This document shows positions 1,772 to 34,274 of a DNA stretch of 39,373 nt, one piece after another. The stretch is from a virus (Duplodnaviria > Heunggongvirae > Uroviricota > Caudoviricetes), in IMG/VR virus record IMGVR_UViG_2534681996_000012. One strand, written 5' to 3'. Every line of letters begins with the position of its first letter. The first letter of the stretch is position 1. Under the pieces are notes generated by a model, which was not told the origin of the DNA, searched no databases, and saw only the letters and a program-made list of their open reading frames with translations. A program made the translations under genes and the position numbers.

Positions 1772-2397
1772 ATAGCCAGCACCTTACTGGCAGTGACGTA
1801 CCGCGAGCGCCGGTCGTCGATGCCGTTCCGGCCACCATTGATAATCAGAGTTACACGTGCAATATCACCGGTATACTTCATGCATCCTTTGCTGGCAAAG
1901 AACCACGCCGCGCTACGAGCCGCGTATTCGTCCTGCGCCAGCAGTTCAGGATTCTCCAGCAGGTCAACTTTCATACCGTTTCCGCAGTCACGATAGTTAT
2001 TCAAACCGGTAATCTGGATAAGCCCGCGCCCACGGTAATTCCAGCCATCGCCGGGAGCATTGTTACCCATGCGTTTGCTGTAAACCAGATTTGCGATCGC
2101 GCGCTGGCGCTCAAGTGGCAATGGTGGTTCACCAGCACGGCGCCCCAGTGCATTAGCCTGTCCCTGGGTGAGGCGTCCAGTCCTGACAAAGCTCGCCAGT
2201 CCGCTGACGCTGTAGTTGAAATTTTCCTGCAACCGGGTGAAGCCTCCAGACTCATGCCCGACCTGAGCAATAAACATTGCCTGATCTTCTGGTTTGCTGA
2301 TATCAAACTCTTTCATCGCAGAAGTTATATGCGAGAACCAGCGTGCGGCCAGCGCCTCGCTAATACCAGCAGCTCGTTGGAATTGTTTAATCTCCAT
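1768..2397 (-). CDS. Endolysin, glycoside hydrolase family 19 (chitinase-like lysozyme)
   Basis: Motifs [12 protein letters not shown] and [12 protein letters not shown] characteristic of GH19 phage endolysins; RBS GAGGT; between holin-like genes and Rz. Confidence 0.8.
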
Positions 2398-2695
2398 GTT
2401 TAGACCTCGTTATTTTGAAAATCTGAACAACGTTACCGCGAGTTTTAATAACCGCAGCTAGCATGACAGCGTTGATAATGACCTCAGATAAATCCACAGC
2501 CATTGGCGTACGTAACCAGATTGCATAGGCGACACGAACAGGAATACTGGCCGCAGCAACAATCAGGAAATAAGCAAGCCATCCTCCCCACCTTCGGTGT
2601 TGAGAGCCGTTACGCCGGAATGTGACAACGCGAATTGCTATGCCAGTGCAAATAACTGCATTGGTGATAAGCAAAAAAAACTCATGCGTTACCAT
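2387..2695 (-). CDS. Small membrane protein, holin/antiholin candidate
   Basis: Three hydrophobic segments and charged C-terminus; ATG 2695 with GGGGAG RBS; overlaps neighbours on both sides. Confidence 0.45.
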
Positions 2696-3086
2696 CGTCT
2701 TTTCTCCCCGGAATTAACTCGCGTGGATTATCGGAACGGTGATAAAGCCATATACCAATTCGCACAGCGACAATTGACGACACAAATGCGCCAGCAGAGA
2801 AGACGATCCCTTTCTCGAAAGAGTCCTGCGTGATGGTAGGGATCAGGCTGGCTACACCGATAAGGATGGATGCTGTAGGTTTGTAAAAGAGAAGGCCACA
2901 GAGAAAGCTAAGCATCGACAAGAGTACGCGACGACGAATGGGATACTCTACTGCAGAGGTAACAAAAATAACCGCTCCAGCCAAAGACCCCAAAGCAACC
3001 TCAGGAGGTGCTCCTGCTATAACCGCCACCAGAGAACTCATGCTAAGCCACTGATTTAAAGACTCACTGGTTATCTGAACTGACAT
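2682..3086 (-). CDS. Holin candidate
   Basis: ATG at 3086 preceded by GGTGG (track start 3095 is GTG); hydrophobic helices, charged C-terminal tail; first gene of lysis cassette. Confidence 0.55.
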   Translation of the reverse strand: MSVQITSESLNQWLSMSSLVAVIAGAPPEVALGSLAGAVIFVTSAVEYPIRRRVLLSMLSFLCGLLFYKPTASILIGVASLIPTITQDSFEKGIVFSAGAFVSSIVAVRIGIWLYHRSDNPRELIPGRKDDGNA

Positions 3087-3322
3087 AAAAACCACCGTTT
3101 AATGTGCATATGCCCCCCTAATTTAAGGGGTTCATCATACACAATAAACCACATGTGGTTAAACAGGTAATTCATTGTGATACTAATGTTAAACTCATTA
3201 CTGCCGAAAAAGTGTCACTGATTAAAACACGGTAGAGAAATTATTAACGAGTAATTTAGGCATAATTACAATATTTAAGTTATTAATTCACTGATTTAAT
3301 CAGTAAAAGATAGCTATAACAT

Positions 3323-3343
3323 ACCACCTCCCAAGGAGGTGGT
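3323..3343 (-). other. Perfect 9-bp stem-loop 26 nt downstream of tail-spike stop
   Basis: ACCACCTCC-CAA-GGAGGTGGT; on the minus strand followed by a moderately U-rich tract; possible attenuator or RNA-stability element between tail spike and lysis genes. Confidence 0.45.
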
Positions 3344-3368
3344 TTAGGAATAACAATAAAATATGTAC

Positions 3369-5384
3369 TTACGCACTTCGTAATAAATGTTTAGACATAG
3401 CAGCAATACAGAAACAAGATAAGTCAGCGTAATTTACACCATACATATCCGATTCTTTATCATAAGTAACCAGAGAATAGTCTGTAGGGTTAAGATTATA
3501 TTTCTCCATAATCAGCATTACTTCTTGAGCCATACATCCGAAGTGATACTTATCAGATTCTGCATCTGTCCATTTAAACTTTATCATGCTAATGGCTAAT
3601 TCTAGCCCTGCACTATACTCTGCCGTAGATATCTCATACACATCTTTACATCTACCGTCAGATGTTTGTATTACACCATTAGTTGCAAAGACAGTTTGCC
3701 ATCTACGACTAGATTGACCACAAGTTCTTTGATTATCTATCTGGGGGGCAACACTACCATCTATACGCAAATAGTTATCTTCCGCTTGTGCGCCTCCCAT
3801 AACACCTTCTAAAAAAGGCAATCCTTTGTGATTATTTACAATGAATTTATTGGAGGTATCTTCTGATATTCCGGTGCCAGCATCTGGACCTATAAAAATA
3901 TTACCATTTCCAGTTGGTAATTTTCTTCCTGCTCTTGCTCCTATCATAACATTCAGGTCACCTGAGGATAGGGAATTGAGAGCATCAACACCAATTGCTG
4001 TATTAAAATTACCTGTGAGAGTCCCAGTGTATGGGTTCTTAGTTGATGATACTCCTCGCAATGCTCCATTACCTATAGCTGTGTTATGATCACCTTGCTT
4101 TAACTCCCTACCAGCTGCATTACCAATAAGGGTATTTCCATTACATTTATCATACCCAAGACGTACACCTTGAGGGTCTGTGTAGATGCCAGTACGCATT
4201 CCTGCAGAGCGTCCTATTGCAACATTAGCTTCTCCAGAATGGAGTTGCTGCAAAGCTGACATACCAACTGCAACATTGAACCTACCATCCTTACACTCGT
4301 TTAGCGCATCCCTGCCAATACCAATCATGTTATTTCCAGTGGTGGCTTTCTTCAAAGCATTAATACCTATACTGATAATCTCTGTTCCAGAAAATGGCGA
4401 CTTATCTGTAAGATCATCTTCTAGAGTATCTCCTGACAAACCACCCACACCAACCACGATTGTGTTAGTGCCGCTAGTTATGTTGCGACCAGAACTTGGT
4501 CCAAGCAAAACCAATTGATTACCTTTACCAGAGTCAGTGTAATTTTTTGCGGCATCATAACCTAAAATAAGGTTGCTATGAGACTGAGCTACATTGGTAA
4601 ACGGAATTCGTTCCGCTCCTGTCTCTTTAATTATTTTTCCTGGGCCATAAAATCTTCCATTAATATCTTCCGGCAATAAATACGTGCCATCAGGAACATA
4701 AACACCTTGTGGCGAAGCAGATGCCGCGGCAATGAAAGCATCTGTATCATTTGTGACTCCATCACCTTTAGCGCCAAAGTCAAGAACACTGACAGTATCC
4801 CGCATCTTATCCTGAAACGTTCTATATACCGCGCCTGAACCATACTGAATAAACCAACCAAAACCACCAACAACCCCGGCGATTGCAGCATCGACATAAT
4901 TACGCATTGAGCGATTATTTACAGCGTCCTGCTCAAGTGATGGATCTGCAAGGTTAGAAATTCTGTTTTGCTTTGCATCGTAATATTTTGCAAGCAAAGA
5001 TGGTTTCATCAATGCACGTCTGAACCACCCAAAACATTGCTGGATCAGCATCGTCAGGTAGTCAAAGGCATCTTCATGCACTTCGGGGAAAAACTTTCCC
5101 TGATTGCGAAGGTCTGTCTCCTGCACTACATCAAGCACACGATCTATCGTAATTCGCCATCCAGCAGCAAGCGGCGACGGAAGAACAACAGAACCGCCAC
5201 TATAAGTGCCCGCCCCAGTTACCGTATAACCGGTATCCAGAACCAATTCTGTTACGTTCCCGTTCAGGTCAGACACCTGAACAACCAGGTCGGATTTTTT
5301 GAAAATACGGAAGGTATACGGAAATGATGTCGTAACGCCGTTACCTGTGTATTCGTTGTGGTCAACTTCGGTTGAGACCGTCAT
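3369..5384 (-). CDS. Tail spike/fibre: T7 gp17-like N-terminal adaptor, beta-helix depolymerase-like centre, C-terminal intramolecular chaperone (peptidase S74-like)
   Basis: N-terminus MTVSTEVDHNEYTGNGVTTSFPYTFRIF...LVVQV resembles T7 tail-fibre N-terminal domain; VLDFGAKGDGVTNDTDAF beta-helix signature; C-terminal region resembles autoproteolytic chaperone domains; RBS GGAG. Confidence 0.8.
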   Translation of the reverse strand: MTVSTEVDHNEYTGNGVTTSFPYTFRIFKKSDLVVQVSDLNGNVTELVLDTGYTVTGAGTYSGGSVVLPSPLAAGWRITIDRVLDVVQETDLRNQGKFFPEVHEDAFDYLTMLIQQCFGWFRRALMKPSLLAKYYDAKQNRISNLADPSLEQDAVNNRSMRNYVDAAIAGVVGGFGWFIQYGSGAVYRTFQDKMRDTVSVLDFGAKGDGVTNDTDAFIAAASASPQGVYVPDGTYLLPEDINGRFYGPGKIIKETGAERIPFTNVAQSHSNLILGYDAAKNYTDSGKGNQLVLLGPSSGRNITSGTNTIVVGVGGLSGDTLEDDLTDKSPFSGTEIISIGINALKKATTGNNMIGIGRDALNECKDGRFNVAVGMSALQQLHSGEANVAIGRSAGMRTGIYTDPQGVRLGYDKCNGNTLIGNAAGRELKQGDHNTAIGNGALRGVSSTKNPYTGTLTGNFNTAIGVDALNSLSSGDLNVMIGARAGRKLPTGNGNIFIGPDAGTGISEDTSNKFIVNNHKGLPFLEGVMGGAQAEDNYLRIDGSVAPQIDNQRTCGQSSRRWQTVFATNGVIQTSDGRCKDVYEISTAEYSAGLELAISMIKFKWTDAESDKYHFGCMAQEVMLIMEKYNLNPTDYSLVTYDKESDMYGVNYADLSCFCIAAMSKHLLRSA

Positions 5385-5488
5385 GTTAAATCTCCAGATA
5401 GTCGCAGCACCCGTTGCGCCGCATATCTGGTTATTCTATTACCTGAAAAACCACATATGGATAGAAATACTGTGAATATAAATAGATA

Positions 5489-5503
5489 TTACCTTTTAGG
5501 TAA
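5489..5503. promoter_or_regulatory. Operator-like palindrome TTACC-TTTTA-GGTAA in the tail-spike/accessory divergent region
   Basis: Perfect half-sites; 38 nt upstream of the LexA box. Confidence 0.5.
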
Positions 5504-5540
5504 TTTGCAAAACGTGCTGGATAGCAAACAAATTATTTGA

Positions 5541-5560
5541 TACTGTATAAATATACAGTT
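5541..5560 (+). promoter_or_regulatory. LexA (SOS) box
   Basis: TACTGTATAAATATACAGTT matches CTGT-N8-ACAG consensus with AT-rich centre (18/20 to TACTGTATATATATACAGTA); about 20 nt upstream of the 5581 ATG; degenerate half-box at 5470-5485. Confidence 0.8.
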
Positions 5561-5580
5561 ATTGCATGGAGAAGATTAAG

Positions 5581-5838
5581 ATGCAGCAGTATCACTATCC
5601 ACTGGAAGACGGATTTACCGAAAGGATTCACACGCCGGGAGGCGTCAAGTCACTGGTGGAGGGATCGCACTTGATGAAATTACTCCGGGATCTCGATAAG
5701 GATGGATTTAATGTCGATGGCCCACTTGCCGAACTGACTGCACTGATTAACTACGTCACCAGCTCACAGATGTCTATGCAGGATCTGCAAACACATCTCG
5801 ACTATTGTGCCGAACAATTACGAAAACAAACCAGATAA
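5581..5838 (+). CDS. Small protein sharing a C-terminal domain with the downstream Bro-N antirepressor; antirepressor-like regulator candidate
   Basis: ATG 5581 with GGAG 9 nt upstream (track start 5566 lacks RBS); IHTPGGVKSLVEGSHLMKLL...DLQTHLDYCAEQ aligns with IHSPSGVLGLTENSLLMNLL...DIQTHAEYIND of the 6152-6838 product. Confidence 0.55.
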   Translation: MQQYHYPLEDGFTERIHTPGGVKSLVEGSHLMKLLRDLDKDGFNVDGPLAELTALINYVTSSQMSMQDLQTHLDYCAEQLRKQTR

Positions 5839-5869
5839 GGTTTGCAATTGCCAAGTGGAGTGCTTATAT

Positions 5870-5884
5870 TTACCTTTGCGGTAA
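5870..5884. promoter_or_regulatory. Operator-like palindrome TTACC-TTTGC-GGTAA between the small LexA-controlled gene and the antirepressor
   Basis: Perfect half-sites; followed by hairpins and a weak terminator. Confidence 0.5.
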
Positions 5885-5978
5885 ATTTACATCGCACTCC
5901 TCTTGTGCCATAGTAATCGGGCACTGGCAAAATCCAGTGCCGGGATTGGCGTCCCGAGTTACTACAGAGGCACATATG

Positions 5979-5998
5979 CCGCATAAGCGGTTTTTTTT
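5979..5998 (+). terminator. Weak intrinsic terminator (short stem plus T8)
   Basis: CCGC-ATAA-GCGG followed by eight T; sits between the small LexA-controlled gene and the antirepressor. Confidence 0.45.
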
Positions 5999-6151
5999 AT
6001 GTGTAAAGCGCACCTATTCTATGGTGGGCTGTGTGGGGGCACCGAAAGGTGCGCCGGGTCCTTTGTAGCCGGTTACGCCAACCCTGCACAGTTCACCACC
6101 AACCGATTGGCGTCGGTAGTGGTGATTAACCTAACTACAAAGGTGATCACT

Positions 6152-6838
6152 ATGACTGCTAACGTAACCCCATCTGTTTTTCATTTTGAATCAGAAGCAA
6201 CCATTCGAGCCATTGTTATTGATGGAAATCCTTGGTTTGTTGCCAAAGACGTTATTAAAGCTCTTCAACTGACAAACCCCACTATGTCAATAAAATCTCT
6301 TGATGATGATGAAAGGGCTAAATTTAACTTAGGCCGTCAAGGCGAAACCAATATTATCAACGAGTCAGGCCTCTACACACTGATCCTCCGCTGCCGCGAT
6401 GCAGTAACACCAGGCACTATCCCCTACCGCTTTCGCAAATGGGTTACAGGTGAGGTACTTCCTCAGATCCGCCGCACCGGAAGTTACATTAAAAACTCGC
6501 TCCCGCAGGAAGAACGCATAAAGATGGTTGCCGACCAGGTAGCCAACGCCACGGCGTCAGCAGTGATGCAGGCAATGAAGATAGAGAACAAAACCTACAG
6601 CGCCCCGCTGAAGCCCGGCTACCGCAGCCTGATTCATTCTCCGTCTGGTGTTCTCGGCCTGACGGAGAACTCACTGCTGATGAATCTGCTGAACCAGTTA
6701 CAGGACGACGGGCACGACGTATCGGGCGCGGCGGCGGAGCTGACCACCATGTTCTGTTACATCGTTGGTGTGAGCAAATGCCTGCGTGATATCCAGACCC
6801 ACGCGGAGTACATCAACGACAAGGCAGGGTTCTTCTGA
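6152..6838 (+). CDS. Bro-N domain antirepressor-like protein
   Basis: N-terminal IRAIVIDGNPWFVAKDV...ESGLYTLILRC...FRKWVTGEVLPQIRRTGSY is a Bro-N signature; ATG 6152 with AAGGTGA 5 nt upstream; track extension to 5999 spans a terminator and is rejected. Confidence 0.75.
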   Translation: MTANVTPSVFHFESEATIRAIVIDGNPWFVAKDVIKALQLTNPTMSIKSLDDDERAKFNLGRQGETNIINESGLYTLILRCRDAVTPGTIPYRFRKWVTGEVLPQIRRTGSYIKNSLPQEERIKMVADQVANATASAVMQAMKIENKTYSAPLKPGYRSLIHSPSGVLGLTENSLLMNLLNQLQDDGHDVSGAAAELTTMFCYIVGVSKCLRDIQTHAEYINDKAGFF

Positions 6839-6904: not shown

Positions 6905-6919
6905 TTACCTTAAAGGTAA
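6905..6919. promoter_or_regulatory. Operator-like palindrome TTACC-TTAAA-GGTAA upstream of the toxin/antitoxin-like pair
   Basis: Perfect half-sites, 43 nt upstream of the 6962 ATG. Confidence 0.5.
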
Positions 6920-6961: not shown

Positions 6962-7288
6962 ATGACAAAACTTGGATTCGTGATGAGAGGTCCGGTAAGA
7001 AGCGGAACTCATGCAAAGCGTAGCAAGAGTCGTATTTTTACTGGTAAGGTTGTAGCACGTAAATCAGCTATTGGCTCGTTCAATAGTGAAAATGCGGCAT
7101 TGCGCCATATTTTTATCAGCACAAAGCCAAGAGCATCCGCTGATGTGCATACAATGACTATTCCTATCACAAAGAATATAAAGCGGATAAAAAAGCTCTC
7201 ATCTGCAGAATCAAAAGAGATATCTTTCCGCCAGCTTAACTCATTAGAAACGCATATGAAGGAAGAGGAATTCGATGTTTTTGAGTGA
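6962..7288 (+). CDS. Basic small protein with acidic C-terminal tail; antitoxin candidate
   Basis: GGAG RBS; K/R-rich N-terminal half; C-terminus ...LETHMKEEEFDVFE; stop lies 12 nt after the downstream gene's ATG. Confidence 0.4.
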   Translation: MTKLGFVMRGPVRSGTHAKRSKSRIFTGKVVARKSAIGSFNSENAALRHIFISTKPRASADVHTMTIPITKNIKRIKKLSSAESKEISFRQLNSLETHMKEEEFDVFE

Positions 7289-7787
7289 GTATAGCGGGAA
7301 GGTTATACCTACTGGTGAGTTTAAAACTGATGACTTTCTGATTTCGCTAAAAGATGCTTTTAAACAACACTGGCGTCATGGTCATCATCCTGATCTGGGA
7401 AAAGATACTCTTTTTGAAAGACCAGACGAAGTATTAGGTTTCCATCTCAGAAAGGTTCATGTCAATATTGGTGAATATGCATCATATTCATACTCATGTA
7501 CTGAACAGTGTTGGGATGAGTGGTCATATGGATTGATTGATGAACAAGGAAATTACAGGCCAAAACCAACCAGTAACGCATATCTCATATATGCAGTCAA
7601 TGAAATAAGAGATGCAGCCTTACTAGCTTATTGGGACCCGCCCGCACACACCAAAGCTAACGCAAAAGTTTGGATGGATTCCGTATTGAATTTCACAAAA
7701 TTATTTCATGAACGAACGAATACAGCTCCACTTAGTAGAAATGTTTATCCGTGGGATTATTCGTACAAATCCAAAAAGCCTGCATAG
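7275..7787 (+). CDS. YafO-like toxin candidate (ribosome-dependent mRNA interferase family)
   Basis: Blocks DDFLISLKD, PDLGKDTLFERPD, FHLRKVHVNIG, AYLIYAV and ALLAYWDPPAH resemble the YafO signature as I recall it; GAGGAA RBS; AT-rich. Confidence 0.45.
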   Translation: MFLSEYSGKVIPTGEFKTDDFLISLKDAFKQHWRHGHHPDLGKDTLFERPDEVLGFHLRKVHVNIGEYASYSYSCTEQCWDEWSYGLIDEQGNYRPKPTSNAYLIYAVNEIRDAALLAYWDPPAHTKANAKVWMDSVLNFTKLFHERTNTAPLSRNVYPWDYSYKSKKPA

Positions 7788-20604: not shown

Positions 20605-20624
20605 GTGGGTCTGTTACGACCCAC
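20605..20624 (-). other. 7-bp stem-loop 17 nt downstream of major capsid stop
   Basis: GTGGGTC-N6-GACCCAC; no U-tract, so more likely a processing/stability element than a terminator. Confidence 0.4.
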
Positions 20625-24533: not shown

Positions 24534-24623
24534 ATCAATGACTCCGTACGCAATTAAATTATTACCAATTTAACCACATATGATTTATTTATCGTAGACA
24601 GTTGACATTTAACGCACGAATTA

Positions 24624-24638
24624 TTACCTTTCAGGTAA
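24624..24638 (+). promoter_or_regulatory. Operator-like palindrome TTACC-TTTCA-GGTAA downstream of a TTGACA hexamer
   Basis: TTGACA at 24602-24607; palindrome sits where a -10 element would be; upstream of tRNA-Arg. Confidence 0.5.
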
Positions 24639-24960: not shown

Positions 24961-25037
24961 GTGGCATTAGCTCAGTTGGACAGAGCAACCGCCTTCTAAG
25001 CGGTTGGTCGCAGGTTCGAATCCTGCATGCCACGCCA
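24961..25037 (+). tRNA. tRNA-Arg (anticodon UCU)
   Basis: Cloverleaf folds by hand: acceptor GTGGCAT/ATGCCAC, D-stem GCTC/GAGC, anticodon stem ACCGC/GCGGT with loop CTTCTAA, T-arm GCAGG-TTCGAAT-CCTGC, discriminator G and encoded CCA. Confidence 0.85.
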
Positions 25038-33571: not shown

Positions 33572-33634
33572 TCACCCATAAGGTAACAAAAATCAAGGAT
33601 AGTTACCTATGGGGTGCATTTACCTGTTGGGTAA
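33572..33634. promoter_or_regulatory. Immunity-region operator cluster (three TTACC-N5-GGTAA-type sites) with divergent promoters
   Basis: TCACC-CATAA-GGTAA 33572-33586, TTACC-TATGG-GGTGC 33603-33617, TTACC-TGTTG-GGTAA 33620-33634; plus AT-rich inverted repeat TATTTAT-N8-ATAAATA at 33549-33570. Confidence 0.6.
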
Positions 33635-33689: not shown

Positions 33690-34274
33690 ATGAAAAGTAT
33701 CCAGGACGTCCGCAGGCAAAATCTCAACGACTTGATCGACCGTGAATTCAATGGTGTTCAGACGCGGATGGCAGAAAAACTTGGAACTCAGGCAAATCTG
33801 GTAAACCGCTGGGCTCTTGGCAAGAAGGTTATCGGCGACCAGGTTGCGCGAAAAATTGAAGCTGCCGCCAATAAACCCCGTAACTGGCTTGATATCGATC
33901 GCTCGCTTTCTCAGGAAGGTTTTCAGCCTGTCGGCCCAAGCGACATTGGTCAGCTGGCGGCTCACAACCTGGAACGCTGGATGAGCGAAAGCCGCGACCT
34001 TTCAACACAGGGAAAACTTCACCGCGCATCCGGCGTCGCCCAGGTGACAATCAGCCGCCTGTTAAACAATGAGGTCAGCGTTTCCATTTCCACCCTGGAG
34101 AATGTTGCATCCGCATTCGGGCGTCACGGCTATGAATTACTGATTCACCCGCACGACCCTGCGACCATCAACTATGACCGCTCGCGCTACGCATTGTTAC
34201 CCGAAACCGAGAAAGCAAAGATCGAAAGTTACATTGAATTTGTCATCAACCAGAACGAAAAAAACAAACAATAA
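33690..34274 (+). CDS. Prophage repressor, tandem HTH domains, no LexA-like peptidase domain
   Basis: Two XRE-type HTH-like segments (MAEKLGTQANLVNRWALGKK and LHRASGVAQVTISRLLNNE); no Ala-Gly cleavage site or Ser/Lys dyad; followed by terminator and operator-controlled promoter. Confidence 0.65.
   Translation: MKSIQDVRRQNLNDLIDREFNGVQTRMAEKLGTQANLVNRWALGKKVIGDQVARKIEAAANKPRNWLDIDRSLSQEGFQPVGPSDIGQLAAHNLERWMSESRDLSTQGKLHRASGVAQVTISRLLNNEVSVSISTLENVASAFGRHGYELLIHPHDPATINYDRSRYALLPETEKAKIESYIEFVINQNEKNKQ

Follow-up and report, generated by a model that had tools for sequence, protein, structure and literature searches.

How can a prophage respond to DNA damage when its repressor appears to be unable to cleave itself? 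The question is raised by a locus in the viral record IMGVR_UViG_2534681996_000012, a stretch of 39,373 nucleotides (nt) that was analysed whole and is called the window below, and which represents a temperate, phiV10/epsilon15-like podophage (genus Uetakevirus). A sequence-only reading had proposed that the region at 5439-6838, with a LexA box, a small gene and a Bro-N gene, is one SOS-controlled antirepressor island, and that the prophage is induced by a LexA-derepressed antirepressor rather than by RecA-stimulated cleavage of its repressor. The latter proposal is supported by the orthology of the proteins concerned to the structurally solved repressor (Rep) and antirepressor (Ant) of Salmonella phage SPC32H. 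All the features of the SPC32H system that can be looked for in a sequence were found in the locus, and this orthology identifies it as the E. coli-phage copy of the published SPC32H Rep/Ant switch. The former proposal has to be redrawn: very probably, there are two adjacent antirepressor modules, A (5489-5838) and B (5870-6838), both aimed at a non-cleavable Rep. The core mechanism is correct and has already been published for the same genus (Kim and Ryu 2013; Kim et al., 2016); mechanism, structures and a natural operator mutant are in print for SPC32H, and no principle is discovered here.

A repressor without a cleavage domain

The repressor gene and the operators next to it are as follows.

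33690-34274, plus strand: rep, non-cleavable repressor of 194 amino acids (aa), orthologue of SPC32H Rep, no peptidase S24
33572-33586, 33603-33617 and 33620-33634, no strand assigned: operator cluster in the rep-cro intergenic region, one site perfect and two imperfect

The description of this protein as a tandem helix-turn-helix repressor is borne out by Pfam, which places HTH_3 at residues 106-147 and gives a sub-threshold helix-turn-helix-like match (YdaS) at residues 21-61. That it has no LexA-like autocleavage domain, as had also been claimed, agrees with a Pfam profile search in which peptidase S24 was not found in Rep even at E<=0.1. Rep matches chain A ('Repressor') of PDB entry 5D50 with E=4e-42 over residues 1-190 and entry 5D4Z (repressor C-terminal domain) with E=4e-20, both entries being Rep-Ant structures of SPC32H. 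Because the protein aligns along all of its length to SPC32H Rep (199 aa), there is no room for an S24 domain in its 194 residues; the C-terminal S24 domain by which cleavable repressors of the lambda/LexA type are recognized is missing, and the C-terminal domain of Rep aligns to 5D4Z. Phages phiV10 and ZX5 have a repressor 100% identical to this protein, and its identity to SPC32H Rep is 41.8% (52% in the N-terminal and 38% in the C-terminal domain).

Induction by the lambda route, in which RecA would stimulate self-cleavage of Rep and the LexA box upstream of the small gene would be incidental, has the general prevalence of the self-cleavage mechanism behind it, and nothing else was found in its favour. 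With S24 missing, with all 194 residues aligned to a two-domain protein and with a LexA box that is conserved where chance would give 0, this explanation is hardly credible.

In SPC32H, Rep reportedly stays uncleaved upon SOS induction and is said to be inactivated by the small protein Ant, the promoter of which overlaps a LexA site; a one-base change in this site reportedly makes Ant constitutive, and the part of Rep that binds Ant is said to be its C-terminal domain. Two later publications are in line with this, a review that cites Kim and Ryu (2013) for LexA-controlled antirepression, and a paper on the 2016 structural work according to which Rep binds DNA as a tetramer and is split into dimers by tetrameric Ant.

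The operator recognized in SPC32H, TTACC-N5-GGTAA, is shared by the window, where nine perfect copies occur versus 0.00 expected. The spacing TTACC-N4-GGTAA gave chance matches only, N5 being the correct one. The cluster listed above lies between rep and a divergent cro-like gene; three operator sites are clustered equivalently in SPC32H, where the motif is found in the rep region (six sites) and at ant.

The small gene ant and its LexA box

Module A and its divergent neighbour comprise the following features.

3369-5384, minus strand: tailspike gene, divergent neighbour of ant, same layout in SPC32H
5489-5503, no strand assigned: Rep operator TTACCTTTTAGGTAA between the tailspike gene and ant, perfect TTACC-N5-GGTAA, conserved in nine phages
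5518-5546, plus strand: putative ant promoter, with -35 TGGATA (5518-5523), 17-nt spacer and -10 TACTGT (5541-5546), proposed from conservation and from the geometry of the p95 promoter of phage 186
5541-5560, no strand assigned: LexA box TACTGTATAAATATACAGTT, 18/20 to the E. coli consensus, conserved, 20 bp upstream of ant
5581-5838, plus strand: ant, small antirepressor of 85 aa, orthologue of SPC32H Ant, ATG at 5581 and stop at 5838

The sequence-only reading had given the part of SOS-controlled antirepressor to the Bro-N gene further downstream, and it is the small gene that fits this part. Its 85-aa product matches a single solved structure, chain E of 5D50 ('Anti-repressor protein' of SPC32H), with E=1.2e-46 over residues 2-84, shares 74 of its 85 residues (87%) with SPC32H Ant, and belongs to PHROG family 450 (phrog_450, E=2e-47). 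The orthologous gene is labelled 'ant' in the GenBank record of SPC32H and occupies the same place, beyond the immunity region and with the tailspike gene as its divergent neighbour. In the window, it is preceded by the ribosome-binding site GGAG, 8 nt upstream of the ATG.

The near-consensus LexA box reported upstream of this gene stands. The sequence TACTGTATAAATATACAGTT agrees with the 20-nt E. coli consensus TACTGTATATATATACAGTA at 18 positions and is the sole site in the 39 kb with at most three mismatches from it, shuffled sequences giving an expectation of 0.00. The looser pattern CTGT-N8-ACAG was seen three times in the window versus 0.55 expected, and its occurrences at 20611 and 25153 were rejected as LexA sites because they are GC-rich inside and more than three mismatches away from the 20-nt consensus. 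When the tailspike-ant intergenic region was aligned for nine phages of E. coli, Enterobacter and Salmonella, four blocks proved invariant: the operator half-sites ATTACC...GGT, the sequence TGCTGGATAG, the LexA arms TACTGT...ATACAGT and the ribosome-binding site. The only exception to the invariance of the LexA arms is a mutation in SPC32N, the sequenced lytic sibling of SPC32H, which differs from it at two positions in total over 6 kb. One of these differences turns a C into A within the CAG arm of the LexA box, CTGTATGTTTATACAG becoming CTGTATGTTTATAAAG, and the mutated base corresponds to position 5556 of the window. The box of the window is the positional orthologue of the SPC32H box upstream of ant, this base included, and the SPC32H work together with the conservation suggests that it is bound by LexA.

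What varies in the nine-phage alignment are the inner bases of both the operator and the LexA box, and also the sequence that separates TGGATA from TACTGT, the length of which is constant at 17 nt in all nine phages. Because both hexamers are invariant while their spacer varies, they probably are the -35 and -10 elements of the ant promoter, in which case the -10 would coincide with the opening hexamer of the LexA box. The annotated p95 promoter of phage 186 is built in the same way, with a -10 that consists of bases 1-6 of its LexA site. Another candidate -35, TTGCAA (5505-5510), was rejected as no conserved -10 follows it at 16-18 nt in any lineage.

The intergenic region had also been said to contain an operator palindrome, and this turns out to be the Rep operator TTACCTTTTAGGTAA, with invariant half-sites and five variable inner nucleotides in the nine phages. 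It is centred near -57 relative to the inferred start of ant (about 57 bp upstream) and lies about as far from a candidate leftward promoter of the tailspike gene, so that this operator may serve ant, the divergent tailspike promoter or both; a convergence of SOS and immunity inputs on the ant promoter is plausible. For the tailspike gene, the promoter scan found no sigma-70 promoter on the minus strand, and the candidate is a conserved -10 picked out by eye, TAGAAT/TACAAT (5438-5433), paired with a weak -35. A degenerate LexA-like sequence, CTGTGAATATAAATAG (5471-5486), one arm of which is mutated, lies immediately upstream of the Rep operator; it lacks conservation in the relatives from Salmonella and Enterobacter and probably owes its presence to chance.

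A second module, probably gated by Rep and by antisense RNA

Downstream of ant, the coding strand carries two Rfam RNAs and an intrinsic terminator, which the sequence-only reading had missed, and then the Bro-N gene.

5870-5884, no strand assigned: Rep operator TTACCTTTGCGGTAA, perfect motif, abutting the -35 of the isrK promoter
5886-5914, plus strand: promoter of isrK, C4 and bro-N, TTTACA, 17 nt, TG-n-CATAGT (extended -10), promoter scan 9/12, conserved
5921-5997, plus strand: isrK RNA, Rfam RF01394, 74.2 bits versus a gathering score of 50
5946-5952 and 5962-5970, plus strand, within isrK: a1 (TTGGCGT) and b1 (CTACAGAGG), complementary to C4 and covarying
5978-5997, plus strand: intrinsic terminator at the 3' end of isrK, from the terminator scan, 5-bp stem
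6017-6103, plus strand: C4 antisense RNA, Rfam RF01695, 79.5 bits versus a gathering score of 45, full length
6060-6068 and 6075-6081, plus strand, within C4: b2 loop (CCTTTGTAG), placed by the fold in a hairpin loop, and a2 (ACGCCAA)
6107-6146, plus strand: C4 target in the bro-N leader, a' (TTGGCGT, 6107-6113) and b' (CTACAAAGG, 6135-6143), from complementarity and covariation
6152-6838, plus strand: bro-N::ant-like gene with a 228-aa product, in which residues 18-104 (nt 6203-6463) are the Bro-N domain and residues 147-223 (nt 6590-6820) the Ant-like one

The Bro-N gene was rightly recognized at these coordinates, its Bro-N domain being found by Pfam with E=5e-20, and the rest of the protein turned out to be related to Ant. 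Residues 145-226 match phrog_450 (E=6e-36), and the C-terminal domain is 40% identical over 78 residues to the small Ant of the window itself (E=2e-15) and matches SPC32H Ant (5D50_E) with E=1.9e-13. By these matches, the 228-aa protein is a Bro-N domain fused to a paralogue of Ant. ORF4 of ZX5 is nearly identical to it, with one residue of difference in the Ant-like region, and its overexpression lowered the prophage titre about 100-fold and rep transcription by 75%, and reduced lysogeny. Most of the proteins retrieved by a homologue search with the C-terminal domain were short or partial. A standalone 95-aa homologue of the Bro-N-type Ant domain occurs in Klebsiella and related chromosomes (2165-3373), in a small islet behind an AlpA-like gene and adjoining a HicA/HicB-like pair; this islet may be a satellite, or the remains of a prophage, with a use for an Ant-like protein. 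No LexA box was found near the Klebsiella homologue, and LexA control is therefore not universal for the family of Ant-like domains.

Module B has a promoter of its own, the predicted start of which falls at about the 5' end of isrK (5921). Five phages conserve this promoter, among them TL-2011b, in which an insertion stops immediately short of it. The Rep operator that abuts this promoter keeps its half-sites in the five phages, and its inner bases differ (TTTGC, GCAAA or TCACA). The terminator at 5978-5997 is the only intrinsic terminator on the plus strand of the region, none having been found by the scan between the ant stop (5838) and isrK. Beyond it, b' overlaps the Shine-Dalgarno sequence AAGGTGA (6140-6146), which lies 8 nt before the bro-N ATG, and the exact complementarity to C4 amounts to 9 nt for b2/b' and 7 nt for a2/a'. 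Pairing was surveyed at eight loci by a search for exact complementary k-mers, as duplexes predicted by RNAduplex for whole RNAs were long and uninformative. In seven of the eight, b2/b' and a2/a' show compensatory covariation across the following types of variants.

b2/b', window and Tyrion: C4 CCTTTGTAG, target CTACAAAGG
b2/b', phiV10, ZX5 and TL-2011b: C4 CCTTTTAG, target CTAAAAGG
b2/b', APSE-7: C4 TCCTTGTTAG, target CTAACAAGGA
b2/b', a Stx phage: C4 TCCTTTTTC, target GAAAAAGGA
a2/a', Tyrion: C4 AGACCAA, target TTGGTCT
a2/a', APSE-7: C4 GTCTCAA, target TTGAGAC

In the Stx phage, the Rfam family c4-a1b1, which describes the a1/b1 targets of C4, overlaps isrK. Because it has its own promoter, a Rep operator and this C4/isrK gate, bro-N would be gated by Rep and by antisense RNA, and not directly by LexA.

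Two further observations concern this leader. Compared with phiV10, ZX5 and TL-2011b, the b2 loop and the b' target of the window are set apart by one-base deletions that match each other, and the Bro-N domain has a swapped N-terminal part; as judged from these differences, the immI-type specificity of the window is not that of these phages, just as P1 and P7 differ in theirs. An open reading frame (ORF) at 5999-6151, annotated as 'ash family protein' in the ZX5 record, overlaps C4 in frame with bro-N, with which it makes up a 279-aa ORF. A bro-N start at 5999 was rejected because there is no Shine-Dalgarno sequence, because the ORF overlaps C4 and because the covarying 1-nt indels of the relatives break the frame; the ORF is most likely a spurious call over structured RNA and is probably not translated.

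Could 5541-6838 nevertheless be one LexA-controlled operon, as in the sequence-only reading, with Bro-N as the effective SOS antirepressor and the small gene as an accessory or leader? Some LexA-controlled transcription could reach bro-N, as no terminator separates ant from isrK, the isrK terminator has a stem of just 5 bp and its Gifsy-1 counterpart is read through, and the Bro-N protein has both an Ant-like domain and a ZX5 homologue that promotes lysis. Yet it is the small protein, and not the Bro-N protein, that is the orthologue of the structurally solved Ant; SPC32H, 65FD and VB_ST_E15 keep the LexA box and the small ant without bro-N, and bro-N is frameshifted in phiV10. It lies, moreover, behind a terminator, with its own conserved promoter and operator and a translational block by C4. 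In TL-2011b (2059-3147), a minus-strand, pseudogene-like insert of about 1 kb lies between ant and the isrK promoter, and the two modules can therefore be physically uncoupled. A single operon is improbable in the face of this, and two modules, each with its own gate, are preferred.

Points for and against the two modules

Several observations weigh against the reading of two antirepressor modules aimed at Rep. The identities to the SPC32H proteins are asymmetric, Ant being 87% and Rep only 42% identical, so that a retained Ant-Rep contact is only inferred, from the SPC32H work and from conservation; Ant could recognize a small conserved patch of Rep, or could act across heteroimmune relatives. 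The ZX5 overexpression study, which concerns the phiV10 lineage, covered the Bro-N protein only and not the small Ant. The generic promoter scan did not report the ant promoter, which therefore stays putative, and the proposed -35 TGGATA is weak. In module B, one of the eight loci surveyed (L009) has the a2/a' pairing and no b2/b' pairing. The bro-N gene is absent from SPC32H, 65FD and VB_ST_E15, which all have the LexA box and the small ant, and in phiV10 (3840-4519) a frameshift splits it into p23 (194 aa) and p22 (29 aa); being frameshifted there and absent from the Salmonella members, the bro-N module is dispensable. The Ant-like domain of phiV10 is truncated by this frameshift.

It could also be argued from the asymmetry that the small gene is no longer an antirepressor in the E. 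coli lineage, where Rep has diverged to 42%, that Bro-N::Ant or some other route brings about induction, and that the LexA box is vestigial or controls something else. That the C-terminal domain of Rep is the part with only 38% identity to its SPC32H counterpart, and that the ZX5 study dealt with the Bro-N protein only, would fit such a loss. A vestige is, however, at odds with the strong conservation of the LexA box, the promoter hexamers, the ribosome-binding site and the Ant protein across phages of E. coli, Enterobacter and Salmonella, which bespeaks purifying selection, and the island is present at a coverage of at least 80% in 237 of 5426 complete E. coli genomes (about 4%). In addition, these phages stay inducible by DNA damage though their repressor has no cleavage domain: ZX5, the Rep of which is identical, is induced about 100-fold by mitomycin C, and Uetakevirus prophages are induced by a DNA-damaging microcin, both of which are consistent with the LexA-Ant model. 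A lost role of the small gene is very improbable, and its retention as an antirepressor of Rep, alongside module B, remains the preferred reading.

A model for induction

In the lysogen, host LexA bound to 5541-5560, over the -10 of ant, would shut the ant promoter. Upon DNA damage, LexA would cleave itself and the 85-aa Ant would be made, which would bind Rep and dismantle the Rep tetramer that binds DNA, so that Rep-controlled lytic promoters would fire, the isrK promoter included. The transcript of module B, from a promoter abutted by a Rep operator, would comprise isrK, a leaky terminator, C4 and the bro-N::ant-like gene. Its translation would be gated in turn: b2/a2 of C4 would pair with b'/a' in the leader of their own transcript, cover the Shine-Dalgarno sequence and block the translation of bro-N, while a1/b1 of isrK are predicted to be decoy copies of the C4 target sequences. 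C4 would thus restrain the synthesis of Bro-N::Ant until it is outcompeted. This protein most likely binds Rep via its Ant-like domain, and would either reinforce induction, gated by both Rep and RNA, or counteract immunity upon infection.

A more ambitious version would make one coupled circuit of the two modules. Read-through from the terminator-less ant after LexA cleavage would supply additional a1/b1 decoy that titrates C4 while Ant lifts Rep from the isrK promoter, so that SOS would open up the transcription as well as the translation of bro-N, and Bro-N::Ant would be a feed-forward amplifier that makes induction irreversible, or a broader-specificity antirepressor that acts on related prophages. 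This version as a whole is possible though doubtful, and the coupling by read-through into the isrK decoy is speculative.

Comparison with other antirepression systems

The closest relative of the locus is the SPC32H system, found in the same genus, with its orthologous Ant and its two-domain Rep without S24. The two differ in that the host is E. coli here, that the repressors have diverged and that SPC32H has neither the isrK-C4-bro-N::ant-like module nor the two Rep-controlled accessory genes that are present downstream of ant in the window.

The likeness to the coliphage 186 Tum system and to the Gifsy prophages, invoked by the sequence-only reading, holds for function and not for sequence. 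Tum, expressed from p95, and the GfoA, GfhA and GftA antirepressors of the Gifsy prophages follow the same logic, with a LexA box over the promoter of a small antirepressor gene outside the immunity region, and they inactivate by binding a repressor that is not cleaved, as Ant is predicted to do. No similarity between Ant and Tum is detectable by pairwise BLASTP (16.5 bits, E=0.059), and the DinI-like half of Tum has no counterpart in the 85 residues of Ant, in which Pfam finds no DinI match. Ant would work like Tum, and by these comparisons is outside the Tum family.

Module B is best compared with the immI region of phages P1 and P7 (c4 - icd - ant1/2). In P1, C4 RNA from the same transcript blocks a ribosome-binding site needed for antirepressor synthesis (Citron and Schuster 1990). 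Shared features are C4 and its target on one transcript, the a2/b2-a'/b' pairs over a ribosome-binding site, a1/b1 upstream, and specificity variants that covary, between P1 and P7 as among the variants of module B. The immI promoter is controlled by the repressor, and the same is predicted for module B from the conserved Rep operator that abuts its -35. The two differ in the repressor, which is C1 in P1 and Rep here, in the antirepressor, which here is a fusion of Bro-N and an SPC32H-Ant-like domain, and in the icd leader ORF: no ORF with a ribosome-binding site was found between C4 and the bro-N start, and b' lies over the Shine-Dalgarno sequence of the antirepressor gene itself.

The same order of elements is found in isrK-orf45-anrP of Gifsy-1, where the isrK terminator is read through (Hershko-Shalev et al., 2016), and in isrK-C4-BRO of APSE: isrK with a leaky terminator, a C4-like leader and an antirepressor or Bro-N gene. 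In both, IsrK pairs with the downstream leader, as the complementarity of isrK suggests here. In contrast to these systems, the ORF that overlaps C4 in the window (5999-6151) has no Shine-Dalgarno sequence, and no connection to AntQ is evident.

A second immunity region with an antirepressor is also known from P22, where immI (mnt-arc-ant, with sar RNA) lies among late genes by the tailspike gene and the antirepressor is partly controlled by a small antisense RNA. The regulators are different, namely Mnt, Arc and sar RNA, the Ant protein belongs to another family and the c2 repressor is cleavable with RecA.

Other Rep operators and the genes behind them

A further operator lies just downstream of module B.

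6905-6919, no strand assigned: Rep operator, perfect motif, ahead of the accessory genes 6962-7288 and 7275-7787

The two genes behind it overlap and encode 108 aa (PHROG 5933, unknown function) and 170 aa; the latter product has a sub-threshold match to the YafO toxin, and its TL-2011b homologue is annotated as a YafO-family toxin. From these matches, 6962-7787 may hold a Rep-repressed toxin or defence pair.

Perfect and near-perfect Rep operators taken together are scattered over the genome, at 5489, 5870, 6905, 24624, 25242, 28175, 28193, 31227, 31289, 33572, 33603, 33620, 34332 and 34394, and most of them adjoin promoter-like hexamers. This dispersion recalls the C1 operators of P1 rather than a single immunity region of lambda style. 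At one of these places, a perfect -35 (TTGACA, 24603-24608) lies next to the operator 24624-24638, 17 nt further on, and is followed by about 320 nt without a convincing ORF and then by a tRNA-Arg(TCT) gene (24961-25037), so that a tRNA gene with a long leader may be under Rep control.

Concluding remarks

What this analysis adds to the SPC32H work is an E. coli member of the system, in which genes that are mostly 'hypothetical' in the records can now be given names. The locus would account for the response of phiV10-like prophages to DNA damage despite a repressor that is unable to cleave itself. In the literature searched, no description was found of an SOS-gated Ant paired with an RNA-gated, Bro-N-fused paralogue. 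If the two Ant paralogues were coupled, they would be a compact case of a single lysis-lysogeny switch under superimposed protein and RNA logic, and, if the Ant-like domain does act as proposed, the C-terminal domain found in a widespread class of Bro-N 'antirepressors' would have repressor binding as its function.

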